A DNA stretch of 64,000 bases from Patescibacteria group bacterium. Its GTDB lineage: Bacteria > Patescibacteriota > JAHJAL01. The notes under the pieces were generated by a model. It saw only the letters and a list, made by a program, of their open reading frames with translations, had not been told where the DNA came from and did not search any database. Positions 1,198-56,743 of the stretch are shown one piece after another. A program made the translations under genes and the position numbers. Position 1 is the first letter of the stretch. Each line of letters opens with the position of its first letter. The DNA is taken from positions 11,752-75,751 of the forward strand of contig DAIRGB010000001.1 in assembly GCA_036794765.1 (NCBI GenBank), in the 5' to 3' direction.

Positions 1198-1259
1198 TGT
1201 AAGAGTTTGCTATATTCTACTAGGCTTTTCTATTTTTTAAACGAAAAAATGGAGTTGTT

Positions 1260-2732
1260 ATGTTACTTGTAAAAAATTTGACAAAATACATTAATCACCA
1301 ATTGCTTTGGGAAAATCTGAGTTTTACTCTGCACAAAAAAGACAAAGTGGGATTGATTGGTGCGAATGGGTGTGGAAAATCGACGTTGTTGAAAATAATT
1401 GTGGGATTGGAGAATTGTGATGAGGGTTCGGTTTTGGCGAAGGGGGAGAGAATTGGGTATTTGTCTCAGGAATTTTCAGAAAAGAAAGAAACGACGATAA
1501 GTGAATATTTGAATCTAGAAAATGATTATCGCGGTTATAAAGCTTTGTCGAAGGTAGGATTGGATGAAATTGATATGTACATGCCCGTTGGAAATCTGAG
1601 CGGTGGTCAGAAGACGCGATTGGTGTTGGCCAAGGTATTGATTGATCAACCGACTTTATTGTTGATGGATGAGCCAACCAATCATCTGGATGAGAGTGGA
1701 ATAAAGTGGTTGGAAAAATTTACACGGGATTTTCCCGGTATAGTATTGGTAGTGACTCATGATCGACAGTTTTTACAAGAGGCGGTAAATAAGATTGTAG
1801 AAATCGACAAAGCCAACAATCGAATAAACGAATATGTGGGAAACTATGAAGATTATTTGCGGGAGAGAGAGATAATGATGAAAAATTGGCAGGTCAGTTA
1901 TGAAAATCAAGAGAAGGAAAGAAAAAGATTGGAAAATTGGCTAGCTTTAAAAAGACAGGAAGCAAGTGTTTTTAAAGATCCGGCCAAAGGAAGACAGGTT
2001 AGACAGATGGAAAAAAGGATTGATAGAGAGATTTATCAGAACAAGATAGCTAAACCATTGGATTTGAAAACGGTGGCGGGGTTGTCTTTTAAAGGTAATA
2101 TATGGCGCGATAAATTGGTTTTAAGGTTAGAGGATTTGACAAAAAAATTTCGGGACAAAATAATTTTGAATGGAATAAACCTTGAAGTGCGAGGGCAAGA
2201 TAGAATATTGATTGGTGGTGACAATGGATCGGGAAAAACGACTTTGCTGAAAATTATCGTTAATGATTTGGCGCCGGATGATGGTTTGGTAAAGATTGGT
2301 GAGAATTTGCGATATTCATATTTTTCACAGGAGCTGAAAAATCTTGATGGTGAGCGAACGTTGTTGGACGAATTGTTGGTTTCCAGAACAGAAGATTATA
2401 TTGGTATTAGTCAGGCCAGATCGATATTGGGTTGTTTCCTGTTTTCCAAGGATGATATTTACAAAAAAGTTGAAGTATTGAGTTTTGGTGAGAAGGTTAG
2501 ATTGATTTTTGCCAAGATGATAAATCTAGAAAATCATTTATTGATATTGGATGAGCCGACTAATCATTTGGATATTCCGACCAGGGAAATTATCGAAAAA
2601 GCGTTAAATGATTATGAGGGTTCGTTGATTGTTGTCTCGCATGATCGTTATTTTGTGAAACAGATTGGATTGAATAAAAAGTATTTGTTGGAGGATGGTA
2701 AACTAAATTTAATACAGGAGCGAATCAGATGA
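1260..2732 (+). CDS. ABC-F family protein. It has two ABC ATPase domains and no transmembrane domain. The class resembles the EttA/Uup/antibiotic-resistance ABC-F proteins.
   Basis: Walker A motifs GANGCGKST and GDNGSGKTT. ABC signatures LSGGQKTRL and LSFGEKVRL. Walker B motifs LLLMDEPTNHLD and LILDEPTNHLD. An interdomain linker of about 80 aa rich in charged residues. GGAG ribosome-binding site 8 nt upstream. The stop overlaps the next start as ATGA. Confidence 0.85.
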   Translation: MLLVKNLTKYINHQLLWENLSFTLHKKDKVGLIGANGCGKSTLLKIIVGLENCDEGSVLAKGERIGYLSQEFSEKKETTISEYLNLENDYRGYKALSKVGLDEIDMYMPVGNLSGGQKTRLVLAKVLIDQPTLLLMDEPTNHLDESGIKWLEKFTRDFPGIVLVVTHDRQFLQEAVNKIVEIDKANNRINEYVGNYEDYLREREIMMKNWQVSYENQEKERKRLENWLALKRQEASVFKDPAKGRQVRQMEKRIDREIYQNKIAKPLDLKTVAGLSFKGNIWRDKLVLRLEDLTKKFRDKIILNGINLEVRGQDRILIGGDNGSGKTTLLKIIVNDLAPDDGLVKIGENLRYSYFSQELKNLDGERTLLDELLVSRTEDYIGISQARSILGCFLFSKDDIYKKVEVLSFGEKVRLIFAKMINLENHLLILDEPTNHLDIPTREIIEKALNDYEGSLIVVSHDRYFVKQIGLNKKYLLEDGKLNLIQERIR

Positions 2733-3715
2733 AAAATGTAATTGAAGTAACTAATTTGTGTAAATATTTTTCTATAAAACAAAAAGAGTTTGGGTTTTTG
2801 GGTGGGATAAAGTCGTTGTTTAGACCGAAATATAAAATGGTCGAAGCGGTAAACAATATTTCATTTGAGGTAAGAGAAGGTGAATTGTTGTCATTTATCG
2901 GTCCAAATGGGGCAGGGAAGTCAACAACAATAAAAATGCTGACAGGTATATTGTTTTCGACTGGTGGACGGATCGAGGTTTTAAATGTTGATCCGCAAAA
3001 ACAAAGACAAAAATTGGCTTTTAAAATCGGGTCGGTGTTTGGACAGAAGTCGCAGCTTTGGTATCATCTGCCACCGTTGGATACTTATAATTTGTATGCC
3101 AAAATATACGAATTGGATCAAAAGAAATATAAAGCAAGATTAGATTTTTTGGTGGAACAGTTTGAGATTGCTGATTTACTCAAAATACCGGTTAGAAAAC
3201 TGTCTTTGGGACAAAGGATGAGGTGCGAAATTGCTGCTTCGCTTTTGCATCAGCCTCGAATATTATTTTTGGATGAACCAACAATCGGTTTGGACGTGAT
3301 TGCTAAACAAAAAATTCGGGAAGTTATAAAGTTTTTGAATGAGAAAGAAAAAGTGACGATTTTTTTAACATCGCATGATGTCGGTGATATTGAGTCTTTA
3401 GCCAAAAGAACAATTATTGTCAATCACGGTCGAATTGTTTTTGATGACGAGACAAGAAGATTGAAGGAAAGATATGTAACGAAGAAGATTGTCGAATTGA
3501 TATTTGAGCAAAAAGCCAAAAAATTTGAATATCCTGCTGGGAAAGTAATTGAGAGAAAGGAAAATCGAGTTAAAGTGGAAATTGATTTGCAGGAGAAGGC
3601 GATTGATAAATTGCTGGGTTTTGCGGTTAAAAATTACGATATTATCGATATGAATGTTTATGATCGACCGATGGAGGAAATAATCGCGGATATCTATCGG
3701 CAGGAGGATTTATGA
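2729..3715 (+). CDS. ABC transporter ATP-binding protein of the ABC-2 exporter type. It resembles the COG4586-type ATPase with a C-terminal extension.
   Basis: Walker A GPNGAGKSTT. Signature LSLGQRMRCE. Walker B LFLDEPTIGLD. H-loop TSHD. ATGA overlaps with both neighbouring genes. Confidence 0.85.
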   Translation: MKNVIEVTNLCKYFSIKQKEFGFLGGIKSLFRPKYKMVEAVNNISFEVREGELLSFIGPNGAGKSTTIKMLTGILFSTGGRIEVLNVDPQKQRQKLAFKIGSVFGQKSQLWYHLPPLDTYNLYAKIYELDQKKYKARLDFLVEQFEIADLLKIPVRKLSLGQRMRCEIAASLLHQPRILFLDEPTIGLDVIAKQKIREVIKFLNEKEKVTIFLTSHDVGDIESLAKRTIIVNHGRIVFDDETRRLKERYVTKKIVELIFEQKAKKFEYPAGKVIERKENRVKVEIDLQEKAIDKLLGFAVKNYDIIDMNVYDRPMEEIIADIYRQEDL

Positions 3716-4542
3716 GAACCCGGGAGATGATAATAAATATCAATTGGAAGTTGACTAAATATTTTGAGATAGCTCGTTTGGCTTATGTTAATTCCGGGGC
3801 GTATTTGGCCAATATTTTGGGTAAAAGCCTGACAGTGGTTTTACGAATTTGGATTTTTACACAATTGTATCGAGTAACTTTTGCGGTTGCAGCTGTTGAT
3901 GTGGTGGGAGGTTTGACAGTAGCACAGGTGATTTGGAGTTTGATGTTGGTTCAAAGTTTTGAGACCTCAACCAAACCAATGATTTCCAAATTGATTGATG
4001 AAGAAATAAAATCTGGTTCTTTTGCTTATCAAGTTAATAAACCATATTCGTATATTTTTTATCATTTGGCCGGTTATTTCGGGAGGGTGGCGGCTAATGT
4101 TGGTTCAAATTTATTGATTGGATCGGTGGCGGCTTGGTTTTTAGTGGGAGCTATTGGTTCGAGTTGGTTGGGATTGTTTTTTGGTTTGTTGATTTTAGTA
4201 TTGGGATACGCTTTGGATTTTTTAATTTCATTGAGTATTGGTTTAGTTGCTTTTTGGTGGGAAGATTCAAATACAATTATGTGGATGTATTCTAAAGGCC
4301 GATTTTTATTGGGTGGTGTGATTTTGCCGATTGCTTTGTTTCCGGAGAAGATTCAGAAAATTGCTGAGTTGTTGCCTTTTGCCAATTTGTATTATGCGCC
4401 GGCGAGAATAATGGTAAATTTTGAGTGGAATTTGGTGGAAAAATTTGTGTTAGTTCAATTGGCGTGGATTATTTTTTTTATTATGATTGTTTCAATAATG
4501 TATAGTCGGGGAGTAAAAAATGTGGCAATTAATGGTGGTTAA
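3712..4542 (+). CDS. ABC-2 family transporter permease, designated subtype A.
   Basis: 276-aa protein with about 6 hydrophobic helices. Translationally coupled to the upstream ATPase. Confidence 0.65.
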   Translation: MRTREMIININWKLTKYFEIARLAYVNSGAYLANILGKSLTVVLRIWIFTQLYRVTFAVAAVDVVGGLTVAQVIWSLMLVQSFETSTKPMISKLIDEEIKSGSFAYQVNKPYSYIFYHLAGYFGRVAANVGSNLLIGSVAAWFLVGAIGSSWLGLFFGLLILVLGYALDFLISLSIGLVAFWWEDSNTIMWMYSKGRFLLGGVILPIALFPEKIQKIAELLPFANLYYAPARIMVNFEWNLVEKFVLVQLAWIIFFIMIVSIMYSRGVKNVAINGG

Positions 4543-5323
4543 AAAATATTTCGGTTTGATCTGGGAGGTGGTGAAAACCAATTTGATGACGGCGATGGAA
4601 TATCGGATGAGTTTTATCTTGCAGGTAATTGGTATGATGGCCAATGATTTGTTGATGATTGTTTTGTGGGTGATATTTTTTCAGCGGTTTGGCGAAATCA
4701 ATGGTTGGACTTTCCAAGACACGGTAATGTTGTGGTCGATTACGACGGTAAATTTTGCGATTGTTATGGTGATGTGTCGTGGGGTTTTTGAATTGGCAAA
4801 AACAATTACTCGTGGGGATTTGGATTATTATTTGTCATTTCCGGTGGATACTTTGTGGTATGTAGCGGTGAGCCAAATGTCGGTGCCGGCGGTAGGGGAT
4901 TTGTTTTTTGGGATTGTGTTGTATTTGTTGTATGGCGATTTGAGTCTTTCGGGTATTGCTTTGTATATTTTTTTGTGTGGGGTGACGGCTTGGATATTTT
5001 TTAATTTTGTTGTTTTGACACAATCAATTGCTTTTTTTGTGGGTAATTTTGAAGAAGCGGCGGAACAATGGTATCACTCGTTGCTGGGTTTTACTTTATA
5101 CCCACAATCGGTGTTTCATGGTGTTTTGAAAATGTTGATGTTTACTTTGGTACCGGCGTTTTTTATTGCAACTTTACCGGTGGATCTTATCAATCAGTTT
5201 TCTTGGGAAAAAATATTCTGGTTATTTGGTTTTGGTTTGATTACTTTTTTGATAGCAGTTGGATTATTTAGACGGGGATTGAAAAGATACGAGTCGGGAA
5301 ATTTGATTAGTTTCAAGATGTAA
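4520..5323 (+). CDS. ABC-2 family transporter permease, designated subtype B. It has an N-terminal KYFxxxW amphipathic segment and a C-terminal GLKRYESG motif.
   Basis: 267-aa protein with about 6 transmembrane segments. Overlaps the upstream gene by 23 nt. The same family recurs five times downstream. Confidence 0.65.
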   Translation: MWQLMVVKKYFGLIWEVVKTNLMTAMEYRMSFILQVIGMMANDLLMIVLWVIFFQRFGEINGWTFQDTVMLWSITTVNFAIVMVMCRGVFELAKTITRGDLDYYLSFPVDTLWYVAVSQMSVPAVGDLFFGIVLYLLYGDLSLSGIALYIFLCGVTAWIFFNFVVLTQSIAFFVGNFEEAAEQWYHSLLGFTLYPQSVFHGVLKMLMFTLVPAFFIATLPVDLINQFSWEKIFWLFGFGLITFLIAVGLFRRGLKRYESGNLISFKM

Positions 5324-5384
5324 TTTTTAGATTAAAAAATGATAGAATATAGTTAATTACTGATTGAATTGGTATTGATTTGAG

Positions 5385-5503
5385 TGAAATATTTTTATGT
5401 ATTATTTTTTCTTTTTTTAAGACTCGGGCAATACCTCTAATGAAAAGATTATTTATCTTAAACAAGTTAAAAAAAGAAAAAATAATACATAAAAATATTT
5501 CAC
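5385..5503. repeat. Copy 1 of a long palindromic element. It has perfect 37-nt inverted-repeat arms and a core of about 45 nt. It may be a structured ncRNA, a bidirectional terminator or a MITE-like element.
   Basis: The left arm GTGAAATATTTTTATGTATTATTTTTTCTTTTTTTAA is the exact reverse complement of the right arm ending at 5503. The core contains GACTC, CTAATGA and AACAAG, which are shared with copy 2 at 36824-36940. Confidence 0.55.
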
Positions 5504-5550
5504 CCAAGTTATTCTTTTGATAAAGTTTTTTATAAAAATAAATAAAAATT

Positions 5551-6528
5551 ATGTCGATTATAAAGGTTGAAAACTTGACCAAGGTTTTTGAATTGAATAA
5601 AAAGAAGGAAGGATTTTGGAATTCGGTTAAGGGACTTTTCAAGAGTGAAAAAACTTTGGTGAAGGCAGTAGACAAAGTGTCGTTTGAAATTGAGAAAGGA
5701 GAGTTGGTTGGTTTTTTGGGGCCAAATGGGGCAGGGAAGACCACAACTTTGAAAATGTTGGCGGGAATATTGTATCCGACTAGTGGTAGTGCCAAGATTT
5801 TAGGATATTATCCCTGGGATCATCAAAATGAGTTTAAGTCGCAGATTGCGATGGTGATGGGACAGAAGTCACAATTGTGGTGGGATTTGCCGGCGATGGA
5901 AACTTATTTACTCAATCAAGATATTTATGAAATTCCAGAAAAGACTTTTCGTAAAAATTTGAATTATCTGGCGGATATTTTGGATGTGGGGGAGTTTTTG
6001 GAGGTGCCAGTGCGGAAGTTGTCTTTGGGACAACGTATGAAATGTGAGTTGATTGCGGCTTTACTGCATGATCCGAAAGTGATATTTTTGGATGAGCCGA
6101 CGATCGGATTGGATGTGACTAGTCAAAAAGCGGTGCGAAGTTTTATCAAAGACTACAATCAAAAAAAGAAAGCGACGATTATTTTGACTAGTCACTACAT
6201 GGAAGATATTAAAGAATTGTGCAAGCGGGTGATTATTATCAATCAGGGACAGAAAATATATGATGATACTTATGCCGGATTGGTAAAAAAATATGCTCAA
6301 GAAAAACAGATTGAAATATTTTTTGAAAAACCGGTTTATAAAAGAGATTTTGTGGGATTGGGAAAATTGTTGGAGTTTTCCAACCAAAAAGTTTTATTAT
6401 CGGTTTCAAGAGACAAGGTGTCGGATGTGTTGGGTAAATTGGTCAAGAAATTTGCTATTGATGATATTGATGTTAAAGAGAAGCAAGCGGCGGATATTAT
6501 TGCCGAGATGTTTGCGGAGAATAAATAA
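5551..6528 (+). CDS. ABC transporter ATP-binding protein of the ABC-2 exporter type. It is a paralog of the gene at 2729-3715.
   Basis: Walker A GPNGAGKTTT. Signature LSLGQRMKCE. Walker B IFLDEPTIGLD. H-loop TSHY. Same length class as its paralog (325 aa). Confidence 0.85.
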   Translation: MSIIKVENLTKVFELNKKKEGFWNSVKGLFKSEKTLVKAVDKVSFEIEKGELVGFLGPNGAGKTTTLKMLAGILYPTSGSAKILGYYPWDHQNEFKSQIAMVMGQKSQLWWDLPAMETYLLNQDIYEIPEKTFRKNLNYLADILDVGEFLEVPVRKLSLGQRMKCELIAALLHDPKVIFLDEPTIGLDVTSQKAVRSFIKDYNQKKKATIILTSHYMEDIKELCKRVIIINQGQKIYDDTYAGLVKKYAQEKQIEIFFEKPVYKRDFVGLGKLLEFSNQKVLLSVSRDKVSDVLGKLVKKFAIDDIDVKEKQAADIIAEMFAENK

Positions 6529-6529
6529 T

Positions 6530-6608
6530 ACATTTAAAACTCTTTAAAACTAAAATAGTAACAGTTTGTCAGGGTTTGTAAGTGTTTATAAGAGTTTTTA
6601 AGGGTTTT
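6530..6608. repeat. Phased A-tract repeat spacer made of roughly 10-bp units such as TTTAAAACTC and TTATAAGAGT, present in both orientations.
   Basis: TTTAAAACTCTTTAAAACTA is followed by an inverted GTTTATAAGAGTTTTTAAGGGTTTT. The same word family occurs at 8276-8355, 9163-9252, 10070-10160 and 32620-32742. Confidence 0.5.
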
Positions 6609-7403
6609 ATGCAAAGGTATTTCAAAATATTATGGCGGATTGCGCGGATGTCGTTGGCGACTAGTTTGATGTATAAAACTGATTGGATATTGGGGGTATT
6701 TACAACATTTTCATATTCAGGTTTGCAGATATTTTTTATTGCAATGCTTTTTAGTTCAGGGGGATTGACGAGAATTGTTGGTTTTAGTGTTTGGCAGATG
6801 GTTTTAGTTTTTATGTTTGGGCAGATAATATATTTTTTTGCATTTACTTTTATATTTGAAAATGTTGGTTTGTTTCGTTATAAGGTAATGCAAGGAGAAT
6901 TGGACCATTTTTTACTGAGGCCAATTTCGCCGGTGTTCTTGTTGTCATTTCAAAAATTTGGTTTGGTTGAGGCTTCGGCAATAATTACATATACTTTGGC
7001 GACGTTGATATATTTGTTTATTAGAACGGATGTGTTATTTTCTGAAACGCAATGGTTGACGATTGGTGTGATATTTATTGGTTCTTTGGTTTTGATGTCT
7101 TGTATTTATTGGATCGCCGGGTTGATATTTTTTTATTGGCCAAATTTTTTGGCAATATGGTGGATGTTAAATAATATTAGTGATGTGGCCAAATATCCTC
7201 GTAGGATTTATCCCTCAGCGATGCAATGGTTTTTAATATTTTTTATTCCATTATTTTGTATGGTAAATCCGCTTTATGATGTTATGGATGGATCATTTGA
7301 TTTTTGGCGCGGTTTGGATATTTTTTTAGTAATAACGATGTTTGTTTTAATATATTTAATGATGTGGAAAGATGGTTTGAGACGTTATTCTTCGGCGGCT
7401 TAA
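6609..7403 (+). CDS. ABC-2 family permease of subtype B. The ORF track starts at 6582. The start proposed here is the Met of MQRYFKILWRIARMS, which matches the paralog N-termini.
   Basis: Conserved N-terminus KILWRIARMS...Y and C-terminus GLRRYSSAA. Six hydrophobic helices. Confidence 0.65.
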   Translation: MQRYFKILWRIARMSLATSLMYKTDWILGVFTTFSYSGLQIFFIAMLFSSGGLTRIVGFSVWQMVLVFMFGQIIYFFAFTFIFENVGLFRYKVMQGELDHFLLRPISPVFLLSFQKFGLVEASAIITYTLATLIYLFIRTDVLFSETQWLTIGVIFIGSLVLMSCIYWIAGLIFFYWPNFLAIWWMLNNISDVAKYPRRIYPSAMQWFLIFFIPLFCMVNPLYDVMDGSFDFWRGLDIFLVITMFVLIYLMMWKDGLRRYSSAA

Positions 7404-7482
7404 ATAGTCAATTAACAATGAATAATTAACAATTAAAAATTGATTGTAAAAAGTAATATTTTCCAAATAATTTTTTTAAAAA

Positions 7483-8274
7483 ATGAAAAAATATAAAAGA
7501 CTGTTTAGTAATTTTATTCAGATGAATCTGGCTTATCGCGAGAATTTTTTTGCTGAGTTGGTGATGCGGTCACTGGGGTTTTTTATTATGATTTTTTTGT
7601 GGAAAGCGGTGTATGCACAGAGGACATCGATTCAGGGATTTAGTTTCAATGAATTGCTAACATATTTTTTGATTGTGGAAGTTTTTCGACATTTGTTGGA
7701 AGCGAAAACTTTTTTGGAGATTAAAGAGGGGGTGCAAAAGGGGACGATTGCCAATTACTTATTATTACCGATTGATTCGATTAAAATATATTTTTCCCGG
7801 ACATTGGCGAGGAGTATTTTGTCGTTTGTCTTTTTTATTGTGCCGGTTTTATTTTTGATATATGGGACGAAAATTTTTGTGTTGCCACCGAGTATTTGGT
7901 ATTCGTTGATGACAATCGGGATGGGAATTATTGCGATGTTTATGAGTTTGTTGTTGTACACGATATTTGGCAGTATAGCTTTTTGGACGGTGGAAACGGG
8001 AAATATTATTTGGGCGTTCAATTTTATTGTGATGTTTTTGGCGGGAAAGATGATCCCTTTACAGTTTATGCCTGGTTTAATTAAAACCTTAGTTGGATAT
8101 TCGCCATTGGCGTCATTGTTCAATTTGCCGGCGACTTTGTATTTGGGAAAATTATCTTATACAGAAGCTTTGATCCAATTTGGGGTGCAGATTGGTTGGC
8201 TTTTGATTCTTTATTTGTTACTCAGATGTATTTGGCGAAAAGGGCTTAGGAGAATGGAGTTGGTGGGAGGGTGA
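7483..8274 (+). CDS. ABC-2 family permease of subtype A. Its N-terminus NLAYRENFFAELVM resembles that of the permease at 3712-4542.
   Basis: 263 aa, polytopic. C-terminus GLRRMELVGG. Confidence 0.6.
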   Translation: MKKYKRLFSNFIQMNLAYRENFFAELVMRSLGFFIMIFLWKAVYAQRTSIQGFSFNELLTYFLIVEVFRHLLEAKTFLEIKEGVQKGTIANYLLLPIDSIKIYFSRTLARSILSFVFFIVPVLFLIYGTKIFVLPPSIWYSLMTIGMGIIAMFMSLLLYTIFGSIAFWTVETGNIIWAFNFIVMFLAGKMIPLQFMPGLIKTLVGYSPLASLFNLPATLYLGKLSYTEALIQFGVQIGWLLILYLLLRCIWRKGLRRMELVGG

Positions 8275-8275
8275 A

Positions 8276-8355
8276 AAACTTATCAAACTTATCAAACATA
8301 GCAAACAAAAACCCTTATAAACTCTTTAAAACACTTTTAAACTCTTAGAAACTAT
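8276..8355. repeat. Phased roughly 10-bp A-tract repeat spacer.
   Basis: ATCAAAC, AGCAAAC, CTTATAAACT, CTTTAAAACA, CTTTTAAACT and CTTAGAAACT follow one another at about 10-bp spacing. Confidence 0.5.
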
Positions 8356-8364
8356 CATTATGAT

Positions 8365-9159
8365 ATGCAAAAGTATGGAAAAATTTTGTGGCGGATAATC
8401 AGAATGGCGGTGATGCGGGATATGATGTATAGGATAGATGTTTTTATAAGCTCGCCCGCGGCTTTTTTTTATATTTTGATAAATATTTTTTGGATAAAAT
8501 ATTTATTTGGGGCGATCGGAGATCAAGAAATTGCCGGGTATAACAATTGGGATTTTTATCTGCTGTTGTTTACTGGACAAATTGGGGCGGCGTTGTTTTT
8601 TGCCTTTATACAAAAGAGTTCCAATGCTGTTCGAGAGCAAATATTGAAAGGAGATTTGGATTATTTTTTGATAAAACCGGTTGCAAGTTGGTTTTTGATA
8701 AGTTTTCAGGACATTAATTTCCGAGTGTTTGTTTCTATTATTGGATATTTGGTAATTGGGGTTCCTTGGATTATTGTTGCCGGGAATTATCATTTTAATA
8801 TTTGGCAGTGGATAAACATTGTTTTGATATTGGTTTTTTCATTTGTTCTATCATTTGCGGTGCGATGGATAGTAACTTTGTTAAGTTTTTTTTGGGATAG
8901 ATTTGATGCCGGGATATTTTTTATTGAGTCGTTGGAAAATGTAAGTTCCTTTCCAAAATCAATTTTTCCCGGGAGTTTGCAATTCATTTTTTTGTATATA
9001 TTGCCGATGGCAATGATAAATGCACCGATTTTTCAGGTAATTGACTATTCATGGAATATTAGTTTGTTGATTGAGATGATTGGGGTGATGATCATTTTTC
9101 TTCTATTGCTGGGGTTGATGTGGAGGTTTTCATTAAAGAAATATGGGTCGGCGGGGTGA
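8365..9159 (+). CDS. ABC-2 family permease of subtype B.
   Basis: N-terminus KILWRIIRMAVMRDMMY. C-terminus KKYGSAG. Polytopic. Confidence 0.65.
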   Translation: MQKYGKILWRIIRMAVMRDMMYRIDVFISSPAAFFYILINIFWIKYLFGAIGDQEIAGYNNWDFYLLLFTGQIGAALFFAFIQKSSNAVREQILKGDLDYFLIKPVASWFLISFQDINFRVFVSIIGYLVIGVPWIIVAGNYHFNIWQWINIVLILVFSFVLSFAVRWIVTLLSFFWDRFDAGIFFIESLENVSSFPKSIFPGSLQFIFLYILPMAMINAPIFQVIDYSWNISLLIEMIGVMIIFLLLLGLMWRFSLKKYGSAG

Positions 9160-9162
9160 GAG

Positions 9163-9252
9163 AAGCAAAAACTTAACAAACATATCAAACATATCAAACG
9201 TATTAAACACTTAGAAACGCTTTTAAACGCTTAAAAACACTTTGAAACTGTA
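9163..9252. repeat. Phased roughly 10-bp A-tract repeat spacer.
   Basis: AACATATCAAACATATCAAACGTATTAAACACTTAGAAACGCTTTTAAACGCTTAAAAACACTTTGAAACTG. It can be aligned with the spacers at 8276 and 10070. Confidence 0.5.
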
Positions 9253-9269
9253 ATATTTAAAATAAATTA

Positions 9270-10064
9270 ATGAAAAGTTATTGGAAAATATTTTGGCGGG
9301 TGGCGAAGATGTCGTGGATGGTGACGGCCAGTTATAAAATTGATCTATTGGTGGGTTATACTACATCATTTATTTATTTTTTGTCACACTTGGGAATGGT
9401 ATATATTTTATTTCAGATATCTGAAAATAAGACAATTGCTGGTTTTGGTCAATTTGAGTTTTATTTTATTTTCGGTTTGGTTGAAGTATTATGGTTTATT
9501 TGTTTTGGTTTCTTTTATATCAATTCAAATAAATTGATTGATCAAATAGTTGAAGGCAAAATTGATTTTCTTTTGTTAAAGCCAAAAAATAATTTATTTT
9601 TAGTGATTTTTCAAGAAATAAACTTGGACGATTTATTGGCGATGTTTTTTTATCTTTTTTTGACTTTGGGATTGGTGAATTACATGGATTGTTGGGAATG
9701 GTTGATCAATAATTTGTGGTCGATAATAATGGTAGAAATCTGTTCAATAATTTTACTGTTTCTTTTAATTTGGATTGGTTCGTTTATCAATTTTTATTGG
9801 CCGCGTTTTATGGTGTTTAGATTGATGGTGATACACAATTCTGATATTTCACAGTTTCCCAGGCAAATATACCCTAGGTGGATGCAAGTAATATTGATGT
9901 GGGTTTTTCCATTACTTTTGATGACTTCGCCAGTTTTTGATTTGTTTTCCGGGGGTTTAAATGGGTGGTTTTGGTTGAATGTTTTTCTAGAGATTGTTGC
10001 CTTGTCATTGATTTTCATTTTAATGTGGCGGGATGGTATTCGGAGATATTGTTCGGCGGGGTGA
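9270..10064 (+). CDS. ABC-2 family permease of subtype B.
   Basis: N-terminus KIFWRVAKMSWMVTASY. C-terminus IRRYCSAG. Polytopic. Confidence 0.65.
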   Translation: MKSYWKIFWRVAKMSWMVTASYKIDLLVGYTTSFIYFLSHLGMVYILFQISENKTIAGFGQFEFYFIFGLVEVLWFICFGFFYINSNKLIDQIVEGKIDFLLLKPKNNLFLVIFQEINLDDLLAMFFYLFLTLGLVNYMDCWEWLINNLWSIIMVEICSIILLFLLIWIGSFINFYWPRFMVFRLMVIHNSDISQFPRQIYPRWMQVILMWVFPLLLMTSPVFDLFSGGLNGWFWLNVFLEIVALSLIFILMWRDGIRRYCSAG

Positions 10065-10069
10065 GGGAG

Positions 10070-10160
10070 TGAAAAACATAACAAATTTATCAAACATATC
10101 AAACTTAGCAAACACTTAGAAACTCTTTTAAACTCTTTGAAACGCTTTTAAACTGTAATT
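10070..10160. repeat. Phased roughly 10-bp A-tract repeat spacer.
   Basis: ACAAATTTATCAAACATATCAAACTTAGCAAACACTTAGAAACTCTTTTAAACTCTTTGAAACGCTTTTAAACTG. Confidence 0.5.
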
Positions 10161-10168
10161 ATTAAAAA

Positions 10169-10966
10169 TTGATGAAGAAATATTTTAAAATATTTTGGCG
10201 GGTGGGGAGGATGAGTTTGATGCGGGATATGATGTATCCGGCTGATTTTTGGACGGGGAGTTTTTCGGGAATTGTGTTTATGGCTTCGCAAATGTTGTTG
10301 ATCTGGTTTTTATTTAAAACCAGTCAGTCGGAGACTATTGCGGGATATGACATGTGGCAGATTTATTTTGTATATGGAGTTTATAATTTTGTTGTTGGTT
10401 TGGCTTATGTCTTTTTGTTGAATAATTCTTGGTCGTTCACGAGTGGAATAATTGCTGGCTTGCTTGATCTGGATTTGATTAAACCGATAAATAGTTTTGT
10501 GGCATTGTATATGAAAGAATATGAAATGGTGGTGGAGGTGATTAGTGTATTGGTTTCGTTTTTCTTGAGTTTTTGGTTGGCGATAAGCGGCAGAGTTGAA
10601 TTGAATTGGACTCAGGTTGTTTTGATATTGGTGGTAATGTTACAATCTTTTTGCCTGTATTGTGTATTGTATATTATTAGTTCAGTAATTGAACTTTTTG
10701 TTAGCCGATTTTCGGTTTTAAGGTTTATGATGCATGAATTTGATGTGGTGACAAGTTATCCTCGGCGAATGTATCCGTTGGCGATGCGGTATATTTTGTT
10801 GTTTGTCTGGCCGTTTTTTATGATTGTTAGTCCGATTTATGATATTTTTGATCAAACGTTTGATTTTGAGAAAATATTTATTTGGTCGGGAGTGAACATT
10901 ATTTTTTTATTGATATTAATCTTGATGTGGACAAGTGGTTTGAAAAAATATTGTTCGGCGGGATAG
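10169..10966 (+). CDS. ABC-2 family permease of subtype B.
   Basis: N-terminus KIFWRVGRMSLMRDMMY. C-terminus LKKYCSAG. Polytopic. Confidence 0.65.
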   Translation: MMKKYFKIFWRVGRMSLMRDMMYPADFWTGSFSGIVFMASQMLLIWFLFKTSQSETIAGYDMWQIYFVYGVYNFVVGLAYVFLLNNSWSFTSGIIAGLLDLDLIKPINSFVALYMKEYEMVVEVISVLVSFFLSFWLAISGRVELNWTQVVLILVVMLQSFCLYCVLYIISSVIELFVSRFSVLRFMMHEFDVVTSYPRRMYPLAMRYILLFVWPFFMIVSPIYDIFDQTFDFEKIFIWSGVNIIFLLILILMWTSGLKKYCSAG

Positions 10967-31558: not shown

Positions 31559-32608
31559 ATGAATAAAGAAAATGAGAAAATAGAAGGTCAGGTCGAAGAC
31601 AAAAAAAGTGATTTTTTTGAAAATAATGATGATTTGGTAGCTGTGCCAAAAAAAGGAATGAATTGGATGTCTATTTTGGGAATGGTGTTGATATTGATAG
31701 TCGTGGTTTTTGGAGTTGTAGCAGTTTTATTGTATGGTTTTAAAAATGAATCTCAGTTTGTAAAAATGATGGCGACTCAGTTTTATTATCCTTTTGTTGC
31801 GGTAGAAGATAAAGTGATACCGATGTCTGAATATTGGAGTAGTTTGGAATTGGTAAGGAAAAATTGTGAATTGGTGGGGACAAATTGTCAGACGACCGAT
31901 GATGATCGAAGGACAGTGTCAAAGAGATTGATTGATGAGAGATCGGTGGAAGTATTGGCTAAAAAAGAAGGGATAAATGTGGACAATAGTGAATTGGATA
32001 CTGAGTATCAGAAAATTGTGGAACAAAATGGTGGTGAGGCTGAGTTTACCAATGTAATCAGGGATAAATTGAATTGGAGTACCGATGAGTTCAAACAAAA
32101 GTTGTTGATTAGTTTGTATGGTCAAAAGTTGGAAGATAAAGTTATAGAAAAAGTGAGCGCTAAACATATTTTAATTTCTGCCGATCAGTCTGCTAGCGAA
32201 GAGGATGTAGCCAAAGCCAAGGAGAAAGCTTTAGAAGTTATTAAAAAATTGAAAGAAGGTGGTGATTTTACTGCTTTAGCAAAAGAGTACAGTAATGATC
32301 CCAGCGCAAGTCAAAATGGGGGAGATTTGGGTTACTTTTCACGAGGGATGATGGTGCCGGAATTTGAAAAAGCTGCTTTTGCTTTGGAAAAAGGTCAGAT
32401 TAGCGAACCGGTAAAAACTGATTTTGGTTGGCATGTGATCAAGGTGGAAGACAAAAAAGGTTCGGTTAAAAATAGTTTTACCGAGTGGTTGGAAGAACAG
32501 AAAAAACAGATGAAGATTGTGTATTTTTATAAGATACCGGCGGAGAAAACAGGTGATAGTGCGACCGATGCAAACCAAGTTGATGCCACTACTCCGGCTA
32601 ATCAATAA
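31559..32608 (+). CDS. Parvulin-type peptidyl-prolyl cis-trans isomerase, PrsA/SurA-like and membrane-anchored.
   Basis: N-terminal transmembrane segment. Parvulin domain KHILI...GGDLGYFSRGMMVPEFEKAAFAL...GWHVIKVE. Confidence 0.75.
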   Translation: MNKENEKIEGQVEDKKSDFFENNDDLVAVPKKGMNWMSILGMVLILIVVVFGVVAVLLYGFKNESQFVKMMATQFYYPFVAVEDKVIPMSEYWSSLELVRKNCELVGTNCQTTDDDRRTVSKRLIDERSVEVLAKKEGINVDNSELDTEYQKIVEQNGGEAEFTNVIRDKLNWSTDEFKQKLLISLYGQKLEDKVIEKVSAKHILISADQSASEEDVAKAKEKALEVIKKLKEGGDFTALAKEYSNDPSASQNGGDLGYFSRGMMVPEFEKAAFALEKGQISEPVKTDFGWHVIKVEDKKGSVKNSFTEWLEEQKKQMKIVYFYKIPAEKTGDSATDANQVDATTPANQ

Positions 32609-32619
32609 GATAATAGATA

Positions 32620-32742
32620 ACAAACCCTTATAAACTCTTTAAAACTCTTTTAAACACTTAAAAACTATGGGAATTATGAGAGTGTTTATTGTAAAGTTTG
32701 TAAGAGTATATAAGGGTTTCTAAGTGTTTATAAGAGTTTTGT
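32620..32742. repeat. Imperfectly palindromic block of the 10-bp phased A-tract repeat family. It lies upstream of tRNA-Asp.
   Basis: AAACCCTTATAAACTCTTTAAAACTCTTTTAAACACTTAAAAACT is followed by the same word set in inverted orientation, GTTTATAAGAGTTTT etc. Confidence 0.5.
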
Positions 32743-32834
32743 ATTTTGTGGTTTCATTGAAAATATTTTCATGCTTTATGTAATGAGGTGGATTTATTGT
32801 TCCAGGTTTGCTAATATTTATATGTAAATTTATT

Positions 32835-32909
32835 GGAGCCGTAGTTCAGTTTGGTTAGAACGCAGCCCTGTCACGGCTGAGGTCGCGGGTTCGAGCCCCG
32901 TCGGCTCCG
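32835..32909 (+). tRNA. tRNA-Asp with anticodon GTC.
   Basis: Acceptor stem GGAGCCG pairs with CGGCTCC. Discriminator G. Anticodon stem-loop CAGCC/CTGTCAC/GGCTG. T-loop GGTTCGAGCCC. Confidence 0.85.
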
Positions 32910-32917
32910 CTTCGTTT

Positions 32918-32950: not shown

Positions 32951-33037
32951 TTCACTGCTCTCCTTTCCTTTTCAAGGAACCAAAAATCCCGAAATGAATT
33001 CGTTGATTTTTGATAATAGATAATAAGCAGAATATAA

Positions 33038-33065
33038 AAAACCGAGTGATCGGTTTTTTTTGATG
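33038..33065. terminator. Bidirectional terminator hairpin, A-run / CCGAGTGATCGG / T-run. This is copy 1 of a direct repeat of about 28 nt.
   Basis: AAAAAACCGAGTGATCGGTTTTTTTT. An identical core recurs at 33955-33982. Confidence 0.55.
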
Positions 33066-33137: not shown

Positions 33138-33326
33138 TTATTTATATCTGTTTTTGTATGCCCAGTGAAGGGCATTTGCAATTAACATTGCAAAAAAGTA
33201 AGCAATGCAAATTATTGATCCTGGCGGATAAAATTTTAGACAAAATATAAAAGTAATTGCCATAATTGTTCCACCAAAAATTGGTGCCCATTTGTTTAAA
33301 AATTTATCTTCTCTAGACAGTTTCAT
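33138..33326 (-). CDS. Small two-transmembrane-segment protein of unknown function.
   Basis: 62 aa with two hydrophobic helices. It overlaps the upstream gene by 4 nt (ATGA). Confidence 0.4.
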   Translation of the reverse strand: MKLSREDKFLNKWAPIFGGTIMAITFIFCLKFYPPGSIICIAYFFAMLIANALHWAYKNRYK

Positions 33327-33796
33327 TTTTTTTCTCCCTTCTTTTTTATTTTCTGGATTGTTCTTTTGTGTTCGGGGGTGAATTTGTATCCCCCGATTTT
33401 TAATTCATCAAGTATCTGTTCAAAGGTCTGAATATTAATTTTTTGTAATTTTACAAAAGAATGTAATCTTTCAAGATCCAGTTTCATTTCTTCGCTGTCG
33501 TGATTGGCAAAAATTTTTTCGCAGCAGTCATCGAATATTTCCTGAAAATTGACAATTTTTAATTTTGCAATTTTTTTGAGGTATTTTCCCTCAATGATGT
33601 TATTTCTCAAAATGCAACAGAAATAGTTTTTAAGATTAAGTCCTGGAGGTATTTCGTAAATTTCCTGAATGACTTTTTTCTGAATGTTGTTGTCAAAATT
33701 CAAGAAGTTTTCTAGATCGTCTGCAAAATCTAGCCAAGGTTCATCTTTTTCCATGGCTTTTAGGAGTTTTTTCGTTTCTTCTAACATTTTTTTCAC
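33323..33796 (-). CDS. Hypothetical cytoplasmic protein.
   Basis: 157-aa ORF, charged and helical. Translationally coupled to the small membrane protein. Confidence 0.45.
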   Translation of the reverse strand: MKKMLEETKKLLKAMEKDEPWLDFADDLENFLNFDNNIQKKVIQEIYEIPPGLNLKNYFCCILRNNIIEGKYLKKIAKLKIVNFQEIFDDCCEKIFANHDSEEMKLDLERLHSFVKLQKINIQTFEQILDELKIGGYKFTPEHKRTIQKIKKKGEKK

Positions 33797-33954
33797 TCTC
33801 TTTCTTTTTAAAATTCATTCTTTAAGACCCAAGAACCAAAGCCCTTTCTTGCTTTGGTACGATATTTTGGACTTAAAGAACAATAACTTTGTAGCATATA
33901 TATATATTGTTGTCAATCTTGTACTGGTGGTATTTTTTGAAATAATTATTATAA

Positions 33955-33982
33955 AAAAACCGAGTGATCGGTTTTTTAGTTT
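33955..33982. terminator. Copy 2 of the bidirectional terminator hairpin.
   Basis: AAAAAAACCGAGTGATCGGTTTTTT. Confidence 0.55.
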
Positions 33983-36823: not shown

Positions 36824-36940
36824 GTGGAATATCCGTATAACTTTTTTTCTTTTTTTAAGACTCAGACATTTTTTCTAATGATTTTGACTATTGAACTCAA
36901 ACAAGTTAAAAAAAGAAAAAAAGTTATACGGATATTTCAC
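36824..36940. repeat. Copy 2 of the palindromic element, with 34-nt arms.
   Basis: GTGGAATATCCGTATAACTTTTTTTCTTTTTTTAA with its reverse complement at 36906-36940 (one mismatch). Core GACTCAGACA...CTAATGA...AACAAG. Confidence 0.55.
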
Positions 36941-54999: not shown

Positions 55000-55074
55000 A
55001 CAATTAACAATGAATAGAGACATTTTTTCTGTAAATTATTAATTTTCTTTGTTAATTGTTTATTTTGTGTGTGT

Positions 55075-55145
55075 TCCGGGATCGTCTAATGGTAGGACAG
55101 CGGCCTCTGAAGTCGTCAATCTTGGTTCGAATCCAAGTCCCGGAG
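55075..55145 (+). tRNA. tRNA-Gln with anticodon CTG.
   Basis: Acceptor stem TCCGGGA pairs with TCCCGGA. Anticodon loop CTCTGAA. T-arm CTTGGTTCGAATCCAAG. Discriminator G. Confidence 0.75.
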
Positions 55146-56726: not shown

Positions 56727-56743
56727 TTTAAATGCTCCTAGAA

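Follow-up and report, generated by a model that had tools for sequence, protein, structure and literature searches.

A genuine, non-random family of dispersed intergenic repeats, built from decamers with a strict period of ~10 bp, was found in the window (the whole 64-kb stretch of DNA that was analyzed). With moderate confidence, the five blocks of this family were interpreted as a lineage-specific, dispersed intergenic repeat of REP/BIME-like type, the words of which are probably recognition sites for a putative protein partner with a putative function at gene ends.

Identification of the repeat family

The blocks were present at 6530-6608, 8276-8355, 9163-9252, 10070-10160 and 32620-32742, as an earlier note on this DNA had described. 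When the three-word pattern CTTNNAAACNCTTNNAAACNCTTNNAAAC was searched with at most 2 mismatches, 16 matches were obtained in the 64-kb window and all 16 lay within the five blocks, while the same search gave 0 matches across 100 dinucleotide-preserving shuffles, and the enrichment of the words was thus confirmed. On the plus strand, which contained 11% C, 17 of 18 CTTNNAAAC words were inside the blocks. A profile constructed from 51 arms of other genomes, without any window sequence, was run against the window by nhmmer. Exactly the five blocks were recovered (E values of 1e-11 to 5e-6, but E = 0.055 for the forward arm in block 1, which is short), and no further match to this profile was detected in the 64-kb window.

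Architecture of units and elements

The decamer unit was T-C-T-T-W-N-A-A-A-C, in which seven positions were fixed at 94-100% and three (1, 5 and 6) were variable over 222 units from 61 arrays. The scan demanded at least 6 of the 7 fixed positions, so that part of this fixation arose by construction, yet perfect 7/7 units still made up 87% of all units despite this threshold. The complete element was an imperfect palindrome of two facing decamer arms with the AAAC(TG) ends inward. Each arm consisted of 3-5 head-to-tail decamers, the loop between arms was AT-rich and 10-30 nt in length, and 9-bp words (NNNNCAAAC) were optional at the outer ends. Arm polarity and unit number (3-5) were constant across the arrays. 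The proportion of perfect units was 87% in solo arrays and 87% in doublet arms, and both arms of the doublets were equally intact. The features of the window were as follows.

5551..10966, + strand: ABC transporter operon (context), ATPase 5551-6528, then five PF06182 ABC-2 permeases (A1 6609-7403, B 7483-8274, A2 8365-9159, A3 9270-10064, A4 10172-10966)
6529..6608, no strand assigned: element 1, inverted doublet in the spacer that separates the ABC ATPase (stop 6526-6528) from permease A1 (start 6609); a forward arm of 2 units (6531-6550), a loop (6551-6563) and a reverse arm of 4 units (6564-6603), then GTTTT 6604-6608
8275..8312, + strand: block 2 outer module (TRF period 9, family D2), directly after the permease B TGA stop (8272-8274); AAAAC, 8280-8288 TTATCAAAC, 8289-8297 TTATCAAAC, 8298-8306 ATAGCAAAC, AAAAAC
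8313..8352, + strand: block 2 solo decamer array, sense, four perfect units CCTTATAAAC TCTTTAAAAC ACTTTTAAAC TCTTAGAAAC
9173..9208, + strand: block 3 outer module, four 9-bp words TTAACAAAC ATATCAAAC ATATCAAAC GTATTAAAC
9209..9248, + strand: block 3 solo decamer array, four perfect units, 21 nt short of the permease A3 start (9270)
10078..10113, + strand: block 4 outer module, following the A3 stop (10062-10064), four 9-bp words ATAACAAAT TTATCAAAC ATATCAAAC TTAGCAAAC
10114..10153, + strand: block 4 solo decamer array, four perfect units, 15-18 nt short of the start of permease A4 (10169/10172)
31559..32910, + strand: flanks of element 5 (context), PpiC-type peptidyl-prolyl isomerase gene 31559-32608 and tRNA-Asp 32835-32910
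32609..32742, no strand assigned: element 5, inverted doublet after the stop (32606-32608) of the PpiC/SurA-like gene; outer words at 32609-32625, a forward arm of 4 units (32626-32665), a loop (32666-32695) and a reverse arm of 4 units (32696-32735), then GTTTTG

The blocks at 6529-6608 and 32609-32742 were complete elements. Both word orientations were present in them, in agreement with the imperfect palindromes described previously for 6530-6608 and 32620-32742, and element 5 ended 93 nt upstream of tRNA-Asp, close to the ~90 nt given before. As RNA, element 1 folded at -16.1 kcal/mol (z -2.0) and element 5 at -34.8 kcal/mol (z -3.7). Blocks 2-4 were solo half-elements on the sense strand (a 9-mer module and four decamers) which filled the spacers of the paralogous permeases. 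The 9-mers NNNNCAAAC of their outer modules showed a TRF period of 9; the earlier description of ~10-nt words was accurate for the decamers and inaccurate for this left part of blocks 2-4. The block 2 array stopped 12 nt short of the start of permease A2 (8365), and its spacer had no structure as RNA (-1.7 kcal/mol, z +0.2) and was the top C>G 78-nt stretch on the plus strand (C18/G2). The outer module of block 3 started 14 nt past the permease A2 stop (9157-9159), and the RNA of this block was also unstructured (-2.6 kcal/mol; C16/G4). The spacers of blocks 3 and 4 shared 80% identity, while the A2, A3 and A4 proteins were just 31-33% identical.

Distribution and placement across genomes

Among the matches listed, the decamer family was detected in no more than a few related genomes and contigs of Patescibacteria (CPR), a taxonomic range that is a lower bound as the genomes were sampled in part. 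Heterogeneous arrays of the same architecture occurred at no fewer than 10 loci on 7 contigs of Patescibacteria MAG180, which is closely related to, and syntenic with, the window genome (93% identity in PpiC), and, among the matches listed, on JAEAMF01 and Ga0265297 metagenome contigs. Perfect decamer microsatellites fitting the pattern were common in other phyla. The survey comprised at least 61 arrays with 222 units; 59 of 61 arrays were located between ORF calls and the remaining two overlapped doubtful calls.

The arrays were found at a median of ~9 nt past the upstream stop codon, and the distance to the next start varied from 5 to ~290 nt. The anchor was the upstream stop. Inverted doublets accounted for about half of the elements, including 18 tight ones, always with the AAAC ends toward the centre; 3 wide doublets and ~17 solo arrays were also observed, and 12-13 of the solo arrays were in sense orientation versus 1-2 in antisense. 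In the type IV pilus operon (pilO, pilB, pilT, pilC, pilin, pilD), doublets occupied five consecutive spacers. Arrays were also present between convergent genes (L030, L112) and between divergent genes (L088, L024/L094, L115).

Constraint and turnover of the units

Sequence comparison pointed clearly to purifying selection on the seven fixed positions. Between element 5 and its L144 ortholog (PpiC 72% identical), differences were found at 1 of 56 fixed positions versus 9 of 24 variable positions (p = 4.6e-5), and at four homologous loci every AAAC/CTT column was invariant while the variable columns differed. The orthologous doublet of element 5 was present in L144 and L145/L146 and absent in L141/L142/L143. 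The forward arm of element 5 equalled that of L102 at 11 of 12 variable positions despite an unrelated context, and the doublets of L125 and L129 were 95% identical with unrelated flanks. In the closest relatives, other repeat modules stood at the positions of blocks 1 and 5: at the PpiC/tRNA-Asp spacer the array was swapped for unrelated repeats and the tRNA promoter-proximal 30 nt were conserved, and in the ATPase/A1 spacer of a 79%-identical relative (L123/L138) element 1 was replaced by two REP-like hairpins. Homologous spacers in relatives were filled by other periodic words, namely 8-mers AAATYTCA, purine 8-mers AAGAAATA and the 7-mer CAATTAA. Copies within a genome were mostly not near-identical, and therefore no sign of a recent burst was seen.

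At the variable positions, complementarity of facing units was depleted (25% compared with 38% at random, P < 0.001), and identity of adjacent units was avoided (26.9% compared with 35.1%). Fold strength was about equal for the sense and antisense strands. Solo-array RNA was no more stable than its shuffles, with folds of -1.7 to -6.3 kcal/mol, and the solo arrays were the strongest C>G 78-nt stretches of the coding strand (C16-18/G2-4 versus a mean of 8.7/18.9). Because facing units were less complementary than random, the strands folded alike and the arms were equally intact, selection for an RNA hairpin was not favoured, and the constraint probably lay at the DNA level instead.

Discussion

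In the explanation that we prefer, each decamer would be a recognition word (core AAAC-N-CTT) for a putative sequence-specific protein, several protomers of which might sit side by side along one arm, as on the multiple sites of transposon ends or in REP/BIME-protein complexes. Either that factor or gene conversion may have spread or homogenised the elements, which would have persisted just 3' of stop codons, where they could be tolerated or useful. When transcribed, complete elements would form long imperfect hairpins at cistron 3' ends and solo arrays would give ~80 nt of G-poor, unstructured RNA; either form might, like REPs, affect read-through or the stability of mRNA 3' ends. Neither the window nor the fetched loci contained a transposase, RAYT or integrase linked to the arrays, and no target-site duplication could be defined at the arrays. 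The equal intactness of solo arrays and doublet arms counts against the preferred explanation, and so does the sense bias of solo arrays, which would not be expected from a selfish or purely symmetric DNA-site model and suggests that the role may be strand-specific (RNA or transcription-coupled).

Given this bias, the arrays might instead be a strand-specific RNA element, the sense arm of which offers a multi-site platform on the untranslated intercistronic nascent RNA, either as tandem boxA-like NusB/NusE antitermination sites or as a Rho-loading (rut-like) or ribosome standby region coupling transcription of the next cistron to translation. This is unlikely, even though solo arrays are mostly sense (12-13 versus 1-2), start directly after stop codons, are unstructured and top the C>G stretches of the coding strand, and a Shine-Dalgarno-like motif precedes just ~1/3 of window genes. 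The AAAC|TCTTTAAAAC junction reads ACTCTTTAAAA, which matches 10 of 11 positions of the gamma-proteobacterial boxA consensus GYTCTTTAANA (PMC5725501), a consensus that may not be the host's; boxA is known outside rRNA operons and varies by lineage (PMC7665894). However, few units fit boxA, because unit positions 1, 5 and 6 vary here but are conserved in boxA (TCTTTAAAAC accounts for 18 of 222 units), and rut sites require no conserved word. In about half of the elements there is also a reverse arm, just as well conserved; in co-directional operons this arm can serve neither as boxA nor as rut, and it would tie up the sense arm by pairing with it in a hairpin. Arrays also lie between divergent genes. 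The earlier note had read the blocks as strongly curved, phased A-tract DNA acting as UP-elements or tandem operators, for example of a response regulator, for the permease and tRNA genes. Runs of 3-5 direct repeats spaced exactly 10 bp apart are a typical feature of cooperative one-face binding, blocks 2-4 lie immediately 5' of paralogous genes and block 5 lies 5' of a tRNA, and curvature maxima of the blocks reached the 96th-99.9th percentile, only when flanks were included. By a wedge model which reproduces the A4T4-bent/T4A4-straight contrast, the arrays themselves were predicted to curve modestly, by 30-45 degrees per 42 bp versus 90-100 for phased A5-6 tracts (74th-88th percentile of the window). 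The A runs were mostly A3, rarely A4-5, and usually followed a TpA step (TTATAAA, TTTTAAA), unlike classical phased A-tracts, and the outer module, with its 9-bp period, does not keep helical phase. Moreover, the distance to the upstream stop is short and that to the next start is not fixed, arrays are found where gene ends converge and in each spacer of the pilus operon, promoter-like hexamer pairs were not enriched (32 found, 27.4 expected), and the PpiC/tRNA-Asp and ATPase/A1 arrays are replaced in the closest relatives, the promoter-proximal block of the tRNA being kept. Such a role is thus very unlikely: the blocks probably serve the permease genes neither as promoters nor as operators, strong bending of their DNA is not supported, and binding of a nucleoid protein is possible.

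The suggestion that the repeats drove the permease duplications was supported in part. On this reading the spacers would be kept mainly as junctions for unequal crossing-over or gene conversion that shuffle and duplicate permease cassettes. The identity of paralog units peaked at 82-88% over gene end, spacer and next start (9151-9310), against 45-60% in the bodies. In L123/L138 an extra permease cassette stands between the B and A2 orthologs with two almost identical flanking spacers, contigs of relatives break within the permease cluster, and a 'unit of evolution spanning two adjacent genes' is known from a tandem paralog cluster of S. aureus (PMC2568036). The family is not permease-specific, however, and occurs at many paralog-free loci (the pilus operon, the PpiC/tRNA junction, convergent gene ends); the conserved 5' part of the genes is explained by the N-terminal peptide MxxYxKIxWR, also found in array-less relatives; and adjacent units avoid identity (26.9% versus 35.1%), which means less homology, not more. 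Recombination as the main reason for the spacers therefore seems quite improbable. Least probable is a neutral by-product of slippage in AT-rich spacers, without selected function or mobility. The other periodic words in homologous spacers of relatives and the pattern-matching decamer microsatellites of other phyla would suit it, but 7 of 10 positions are fixed at ~99% over 222 units from several genomes with three left free, orthologous differences mostly avoid the fixed positions, adjacent units resemble each other less than random ones would, contrary to what recent slippage would leave, and arm polarity and unit number are constant.

Comparison with known systems

The BIME concept reportedly goes back to Gilson et al. 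in 1991. REPs are located 3' of genes, where the neighbouring ORFs are unidirectional or convergent, and often form inverted dimers (PMC3733652, PMC3116915). The placement of the arrays matches this. Like the REP/REPIN/BIME sequences of Proteobacteria, the family is high-copy, extragenic and mainly just 3' of genes, frequently forms inverted doublets with a short spacer and a possible long hairpin, and belongs to families that are genus- or species-specific; as in BIMEs, a mosaic with other short repeats is seen in the same spacers, the partner in relatives being the REP-like hairpin GTCATYCTGGARCC... Differently, a decamer arm is a head-to-tail array of 3-5 words without a GTAG/CGTC tag, whereas a REP is a self-palindromic stem-loop of 20-40 bp. 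The arms lack REPIN-type compensatory changes, with complementarity at variable positions depleted; solo arrays are as intact as doublets and sense-biased, whereas REP singlets decay; no RAYT gene accompanied the arrays in the window and fetched loci, and copies from the same genome are mostly not near-identical.

Several subterminal repeats that bind transposase are present at the ends of transposons such as Tn7, Mu and Ac/Ds (AAACGG motifs). Similar to these and to MITEs, the elements are small (85-135 bp), have terminal inverted arms of several direct binding-type words and are found in unrelated flanks (L125 and L129). They differ in having no identified target-site duplication or autonomous partner, in old orthologous copies whose words are still intact, unlike what is expected of neutral MITE remnants, and in maintained solo arms and a density of up to one per operon spacer. 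Cooperative direct-repeat arrays such as ParR-parC, omega-repressor heptads, MraZ boxes and plasmid iterons are found at one or few loci, where they overlap promoters and lie beside the gene that encodes their binding protein. The decamer arrays share with them 3-5 short words at fixed 7-11-bp spacing in direct and converging orientations, with a conserved core and free positions in each word, but are dispersed over many spacers, anchored at gene 3' ends and have no linked candidate gene.

With boxA (PMC5725501, PMC7665894) the family shares the unit junction ACTCTTTAAAA, a 10/11 match to a gamma-proteobacterial consensus that may not be the host's, the sense orientation of solo arrays and a site in untranslated RNA where Rho could act, whereas decamers are tandem, degenerate at boxA-conserved positions and equally conserved in reverse arms. 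As in the tandem lpl paralog cluster of S. aureus (PMC2568036), conservation in the permease cluster is best over gene end, spacer and next start, but the repeats in the permease spacers are part of a genome-wide family with copies outside paralog clusters as well.

Decamer arrays in the window

The five intergenic blocks of repeated words that the earlier note had described (6530-6608, 8276-8355, 9163-9252, 10070-10160 and 32620-32742, here blocks 1-5) were confirmed. Enrichment of the words was verified with a three-unit pattern (at most 2 mismatches), which gave 16 matches, all in the blocks, and none in 100 shuffles, and 17 of the 18 plus-strand CTTNNAAAC words of the window fell inside the blocks. 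When 51 arms from other genomes were made into a profile HMM, it returned exactly the five blocks and no other match in the 64 kb. The G+C content of the window was 35% and its coding-strand skew was extreme (plus strand: C 11%, G 24%), with C exceeding G in only 5% of 78-nt windows; because the plus strand is so skewed, C/A-rich words are conspicuous on it. The 10-bp periodicity claimed earlier was recovered by Tandem Repeats Finder in each of the five blocks (period 10, and 20), but the left parts of blocks 2-4 had a period of 9. These three blocks were laid out as follows.

8275-8352, sense strand: block 2, 9-bp words then 10-bp words
9173-9248, sense strand: block 3, 9-bp words then 10-bp words
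10078-10153, sense strand: block 4, 9-bp words then 10-bp words

In each, the permease stop was followed by 9-bp words (NNNNCAAAC), three to four in number, then by four 10-bp words (NCTTNNAAAC) and AAACT(G/A), and the next start codon lay 12-21 nt beyond. Blocks 1 and 5 were inverted doublets, in which a loop of 13 or 30 nt separated the forward from the reverse arm. Arms ended in CAAAC on the outer side and AAACTG or AAACT on the inner side, and complete elements measured 80-135 bp with inverted arms of 30-50 bp. The window holds two complete palindromes and three solo half-elements of the family.

Gene context and other elements of the window

Blocks 1-4 belong to an ABC transporter cluster, and block 5 follows a PpiC/SurA-like gene, 93 nt before tRNA-Asp.

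5551-6528: ABC ATPase, then five PF06182 ABC-2 permeases

Two tandem ABC-2 systems occupied 2729-10966, one with an ATPase at 2729-3715 and two permeases, the other with the ATPase at 5551-6528 and five. The N-terminal motif MxxYxKIxWR was common to all these permeases in the window, in L123/L138 and in L135 (L numbers denote loci or contigs from other genomes and metagenomes), and the A-type paralogs varied in number and order among relatives, with an extra cassette in L123/L138 and six permeases in L135. The spacer between permeases A1 and B (7404-7482) was without a decamer array and carried 7-bp words (CAATTAA / CAATGAA); it was conserved in a 79%-identical relative (L123 9497-9576), and in L109 similar words (AATTAACAATTAAAAATT) stood before 9-mers. 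Many starts in the window were preceded by pure A/T sequence, and since only about one third of genes had a Shine-Dalgarno-like motif, its absence after the arrays is unremarkable.

The remaining window was housekeeping chromosome (gyrB/gyrA, IF-2, Der, DnaE, L19, L25, GltX), and no transposase or integron integrase was found in the window. The stretch 55074-64000 resembled a mobile element that had integrated next to a tRNA gene, separate from the arrays.

55074-55146: tRNA-Gln, large serine recombinase directly after
55116-56726, minus strand: large serine recombinase, adjoining tRNA-Gln
57342-58352: AAA_25 protein, after the serine recombinase
60043-60160: LOOT RNA, 72.7 bits
61801-63486: N6/N4 DNA methylase

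A second palindromic repeat family was present at 5380-5507 and 36824-36940, and also at L123 3120-3250. The two window copies consisted of a conserved centre of about 50 nt between AT-rich arms of 35-41 nt (98% and 97% complementary), with folding energies from -46 to -50 kcal/mol (z from -10 to -13); their outer arms differed between copies yet remained complementary. The centre contained a promoter-like TTGACT-17-TAAAAA directed at the downstream gene (ABC ATPase; NDK), and the L123 copy had a GC-rich terminator hairpin in place of the left arm. A terminator-like hairpin (AAAAAACCGAGTGATCGGTTTTTTT) occurred twice, inverted and 892 nt apart (33035-33060 and 33953-33978), flanking an ORF on the minus strand (33323-33796) shortly after tRNA-Asp; the hairpin was also found 3' of tRNA-Asp in relatives L141, L144 and L145.

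Distribution of the family

A scan of species-representative genomes detected at least 10 loci in Patescibacteria Betzabe_MAG180 (JBMORM01), a close, syntenic relative of the window genome (PpiC protein 93% identical), with heterogeneous arrays of the same architecture. A metagenome scan, in which the pattern excluded perfect repeats, added contigs of JAEAMF01 and Ga0265297. The collected sample comprised at least 61 arrays and 222 units with the consensus T-C-T-T-W-N-A-A-A-C, and over the 222 units positions 2-4 and 7-10 were fixed at 94-100% and positions 1, 5 and 6 were variable. Because the scan demanded a match at 6 or more of the 7 fixed positions, the fixation figure is partly built in; despite this threshold, 87% of units were perfect (7/7).

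The decamer family was absent from the 15-21-kb loci L132-L137 (ATPase about 75% identical), whose homologous spacers carried other periodic words, namely 8-mers (AAATYTCA...AAAC), purine 8-mers (AAGAAATA) and the 9-mers. Among the genomes and loci sampled, the decamer family was confined to one clade. In the sister lineages, spacers opened right after the stop with AAATYTCA 8-mers (ending CAAAC), purine-only 8-mers and 9-mers, and were near-identical within one operon and different between genomes. The 8-, 9- and 10-bp period words had a CAAA(C) core in common.

Periodic arrays of sister lineages
L132: 11984-12317, 13065-13245, 14860-15372
L134
L135: 13640-15514
L141: 11150-11200
L143

Scan matches outside Patescibacteria were mostly perfect decamer microsatellites of unrelated architecture, such as (CCTTCTAAAC)n in Bacteroidota. 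Microsatellites of (CCTTCTAAAC)n, (CCTTATAAAC)n, (ACTTCAAAAC)n and (TCTTTTAAAC)n were listed in L002-L093 and L095-L128 (e.g. L006, L020, L034, L049, L096, L105). Long perfect or near-perfect ones were frequent in Bacteroidota/Saprospiraceae, Thermoanaerobaculia, Brocadiaceae and other MAGs, often at contig ends, and some genomes had many such loci. A phage origin was rejected, the single weak two-unit match in viral contigs being judged chance. Literature searches turned up no description of intergenic repeat families in Patescibacteria.

Arrangement and placement of the arrays

By crude ORF calls, 59 of the 61 arrays lay between ORFs and the other two overlapped doubtful calls. Tight inverted doublets (n = 18) always had their AAAC ends facing a loop of 10-30 nt; wide doublets (n = 3) enclosed other repeats within the loop, and about 17 arrays were solo. 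From the upstream stop to the element the median distance was about 9 nt, and the next start codon was 5 to about 290 nt away. Flanking genes were co-directional in the majority, convergent at L030 and L112, and less often divergent (L088, L024/L094, L115). In the type IV pilus operon of L125 (pilO, pilB, pilT, pilC, pilin, pilD), each of five consecutive spacers contained a doublet. Between co-directional genes, 12-13 solo arrays were sense and 1-2 antisense, which after allowing for paralogy and orthology left about 8 independent sense arrays against 1. No ORF lay between array pairs at any locus of the partly sampled genomes, as it would in a related autonomous IS sharing these ends. These observations established family membership, architecture and placement.

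Selection on the words

The PpiC/tRNA-Asp spacer was compared over graded relatives, and the doublet was present in the window, in L144 (PpiC 72%) and, partly decayed, in L145/L146 (68%). Between the block 5 elements of the window and L144, 1 of 56 fixed positions differed against 9 of 24 variable positions (Fisher p = 4.6e-5), and the loops were unalignable. At the homologous loci L092, L112, L118 and L030, the AAAC/CTT columns were all invariant and the variable columns differed. In the permease cluster, spacers were 66-80% identical, compared with 56-61% for the DNA of the flanking paralogs (shuffled baseline 54%; protein 31-33%), and identity reached its maximum of 82-88% across 9151-9310.

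Neutral slippage does not account for the arrays, since the fixed words persist at orthologous loci and the spacers are better conserved than the paralogs. It is also opposed by the variable positions, at which adjacent units agreed less often than random pairs (26.9% against 35.1%, P<0.001), and facing units of the two arms were complementary less often than random pairings (25% against 38%, P<0.001). Versions with perfect repetition or perfect palindromy may be unstable and get lost. Purifying selection acts on the words.

Turnover and movement of the elements

The closest relatives (MAG180 loci L141/L142, 93%, and L143, 89%) had no decamer doublet in the PpiC/tRNA-Asp spacer, which instead contained a REP-like hairpin (GTCATCCCGGA...) together with 9-bp words, GAAAATTGG words and an array of 8-mers; conservation persisted in the 30 nt immediately upstream of tRNA-Asp. 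Likewise, L123/L138 (79% nucleotide identity, syntenic with window 1233-8691) had two REP-like hairpins and no doublet at the block 1 spacer. A 120-bp doublet was 95% identical between L125 and L129 with unrelated flanks, the forward arm of block 5 equalled an L102 arm from an unrelated context at 11 of 12 variable positions, and two inter-permease spacers of L123, nearly identical to each other, flanked an extra permease cassette. From the orthologous, replaced and copied elements it follows that the elements are old at some sites, replaced elsewhere, and occasionally copied or converted.

The REP-like hairpins of relatives formed a separate family (TGTCATYCTGGARCCGRAAGYGTAATC...TCCAGGATGAC), often beside or within decamer elements, with no match in the window at up to 3 mismatches.

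REP-like hairpins in relatives
L123: 8506-8699 (= L138 10979-11175)
L024: 3250-3400
L065: 1650-1700, minus strand
L092: 3190-3310
L141: 11090-11150
L143

Contigs of related assemblies ended in or next to repeat-filled spacers (L123/L138, ending at 23027, L142, L139 and L140), which suggests that the repeats fragment metagenome assemblies of this lineage.

Possible recognition at the DNA or RNA level

As RNA, the doublets formed long hairpins with imperfect pairing (-34.8 kcal/mol, z -3.7 for block 5; -16.1, z -2.0 for block 1). Single arms and solo arrays had essentially no structure (between -1.7 and -6.3 kcal/mol, z between +0.2 and +1.5), the hairpin forming only between two arms. Selection for such a hairpin was rejected, as complementarity at variable positions was depleted and sense and antisense folded alike. 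No compensatory variation was seen between arms and the sense strand had no systematic folding advantage (more stable in 9 of 17, p = 0.45); therefore nothing indicates RNA-hairpin selection. Both arms of doublets were equally intact. These results favoured recognition of the word itself, symmetric on DNA.

The main rival is that the arrays would act on the transcript, as boxA-like Nus-factor sites or as rut-like RNA. The sense bias of the solo arrays, together with their intactness (87% perfect units, the same as in doublet arms), speaks against a purely symmetric DNA model. Solo arrays were also the strongest coding-strand C>G stretches (C16-18/G2-4 in 78 nt, where the mean is 8.7/18.9), and they alone had the makeup of rut RNA (about 80 nt, C-rich, G-poor and unstructured), whereas the doublets fold, and rut sites carry no conserved word, unlike the decamer arrays. 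A unit junction (ACTCTTTAAAA) matched the gamma-proteobacterial boxA consensus GYTCTTTAANA (PMC5725501) at 10 of 11 positions, as some junctions do, and none of the loci collected included an rRNA leader of the lineage; however, positions 1, 5 and 6 vary in the decamers yet are conserved in boxA, and reverse arms, which cannot act as boxA or rut, are conserved equally. For 6400-10300, Rfam returned nothing, whether gathering thresholds were applied or E values up to 5 were allowed, and at block 5 only sub-threshold, chance miRNA-like matches. A coding or recoded read-through (TGA as Gly) was rejected because the three spacers run on in different frames and soon hit stops, and a 10-bp period is incompatible with coding.

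Bending, promoter and recombination readings

The repeats had earlier been read as phased A-tracts producing strongly bent DNA. Curvature was predicted with a wedge model, which reproduced the contrast between bent A4T4 and straight T4A4. The predicted bend of the arrays was 30-45 degrees per 42 bp, compared with 90-100 for phased A5-6, which placed them in the 74th-88th percentile of the window; values in the 96th-99.9th came only from block maxima with flanks. The units were mostly A3 after TpA and the outer module had a period of 9 bp, which does not agree with phased A-tracts, whose runs of at least 4-6 bp lack TpA steps and recur about every 10.5 bp. As for a UP element or operator, the elements had no fixed position relative to the next start and also occurred between convergent genes and throughout an operon. 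The loss of elements at orthologous sites where the tRNA promoter-proximal block was kept also speaks against a promoter role. Promoter-like hexamer pairs were at background level in hexamer scans, and a 10-bp word period cannot give a 17-bp spacer. The reading as bent DNA or a promoter array was mostly not supported. The suggestion that the repeats were a recombination substrate was partly supported, and only for the permease cluster, with its 82-88% identity peak and the extra L123 cassette between near-identical spacers.

Overall reading and significance

Patescibacteria (CPR) have tiny genomes, and to our knowledge very little is known of their non-coding DNA. Here, a decamer family fills entire spacers within core operons (ABC transporter, type IV pilus), with an unusual word-array architecture under clear purifying selection. 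We give about an even chance to the arrays being a lineage-specific, REP/BIME-like dispersed intergenic repeat whose decamer words are conserved recognition sites. The words would then serve as protein-binding sites; the mode by which the elements spread, and any effect on transcripts, we likewise only infer.

A quite improbable alternative is that the arrays are a host-maintained, polar 'operon punctuation' or antitermination system, with multi-site landing pads after stop codons, from which a lineage-specific, sequence-specific factor would act polarly on transcription. The pads might be tandem boxA-like Nus-factor sites that shield the untranslated RNA between cistrons against Rho, or they might form a roadblock or insulator bound to DNA; the action would be bidirectional for complete palindromes and one-way for solo arrays, and the 8-mers and 9-mers of sister lineages would be co-evolving dialects of one system.

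Should a protein or Nus factor bind the words, they would show how Patescibacteria organise or insulate operons. For assembly and annotation it matters that related MAG contigs break near repeat-filled spacers and that other repeat modules take the place of the arrays in sister genomes. Even an ordinary REP/MITE-like repeat would bring a further phylum into the class, and with it a design of its own.

Comparison with known systems

Uptake sequences (USS/DUS), in which one short motif is over-represented across the whole genome, genes included, did not fit, because single words were not enriched outside arrays (AAACNCTT occurred once on the plus and 13 times on the minus strand, with composition-based expectations of about 2.6 and about 14). 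Integron attC sites (RYYYAAC...GTTRRRY) were also rejected, as the words end in AAAC, with a purine before AAC, and had neither an attC core nor a linked integrase; the genes between elements belonged to an ABC transporter and to a core operon for type IV pili, unlike the promoterless accessory cassettes of integrons.

The REP-like reading rests on several likenesses to REP/REPIN/BIME elements: the arrays follow genes, pair as inverted doublets across short spacers, have a sequence specific to the lineage and form mosaics with other repeats (PMC3733652, PMC3116915). The REP unit is itself a stem-loop, a 20-40-bp imperfect palindrome, whereas the decamer arms are without a self-palindromic unit. 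One end of a REP/REPIN is marked by an unpaired, conserved tag, GTAG or CGTC (PMC3733652), which was absent from the ends of the decamer arms, and no RAYT (IS200/IS605-like Y1 transposase) was found among about 50 window ORFs or annotated loci. REP/REPIN doublets retain their hairpin through compensatory changes, and the singlets have decayed further (PMC3116915); in contrast, facing variable positions of the decamer arms had no compensatory change and solo arrays were undecayed. The terminal inverted repeats on a non-coding element resemble those of MITEs (50-500 bp). At orthologous spacers the array was replaced by other repeats with no clean empty sites, and element ends graded into further half-words, with no target-site duplication definable. 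The arms resemble protein-binding word arrays, such as transposon subterminal repeats, direct repeats of the ParR/omega/MraZ type and iterons; unlike the ParR/omega/MraZ-type arrays or iterons, the decamer arrays are dispersed and anchored to gene 3' ends.
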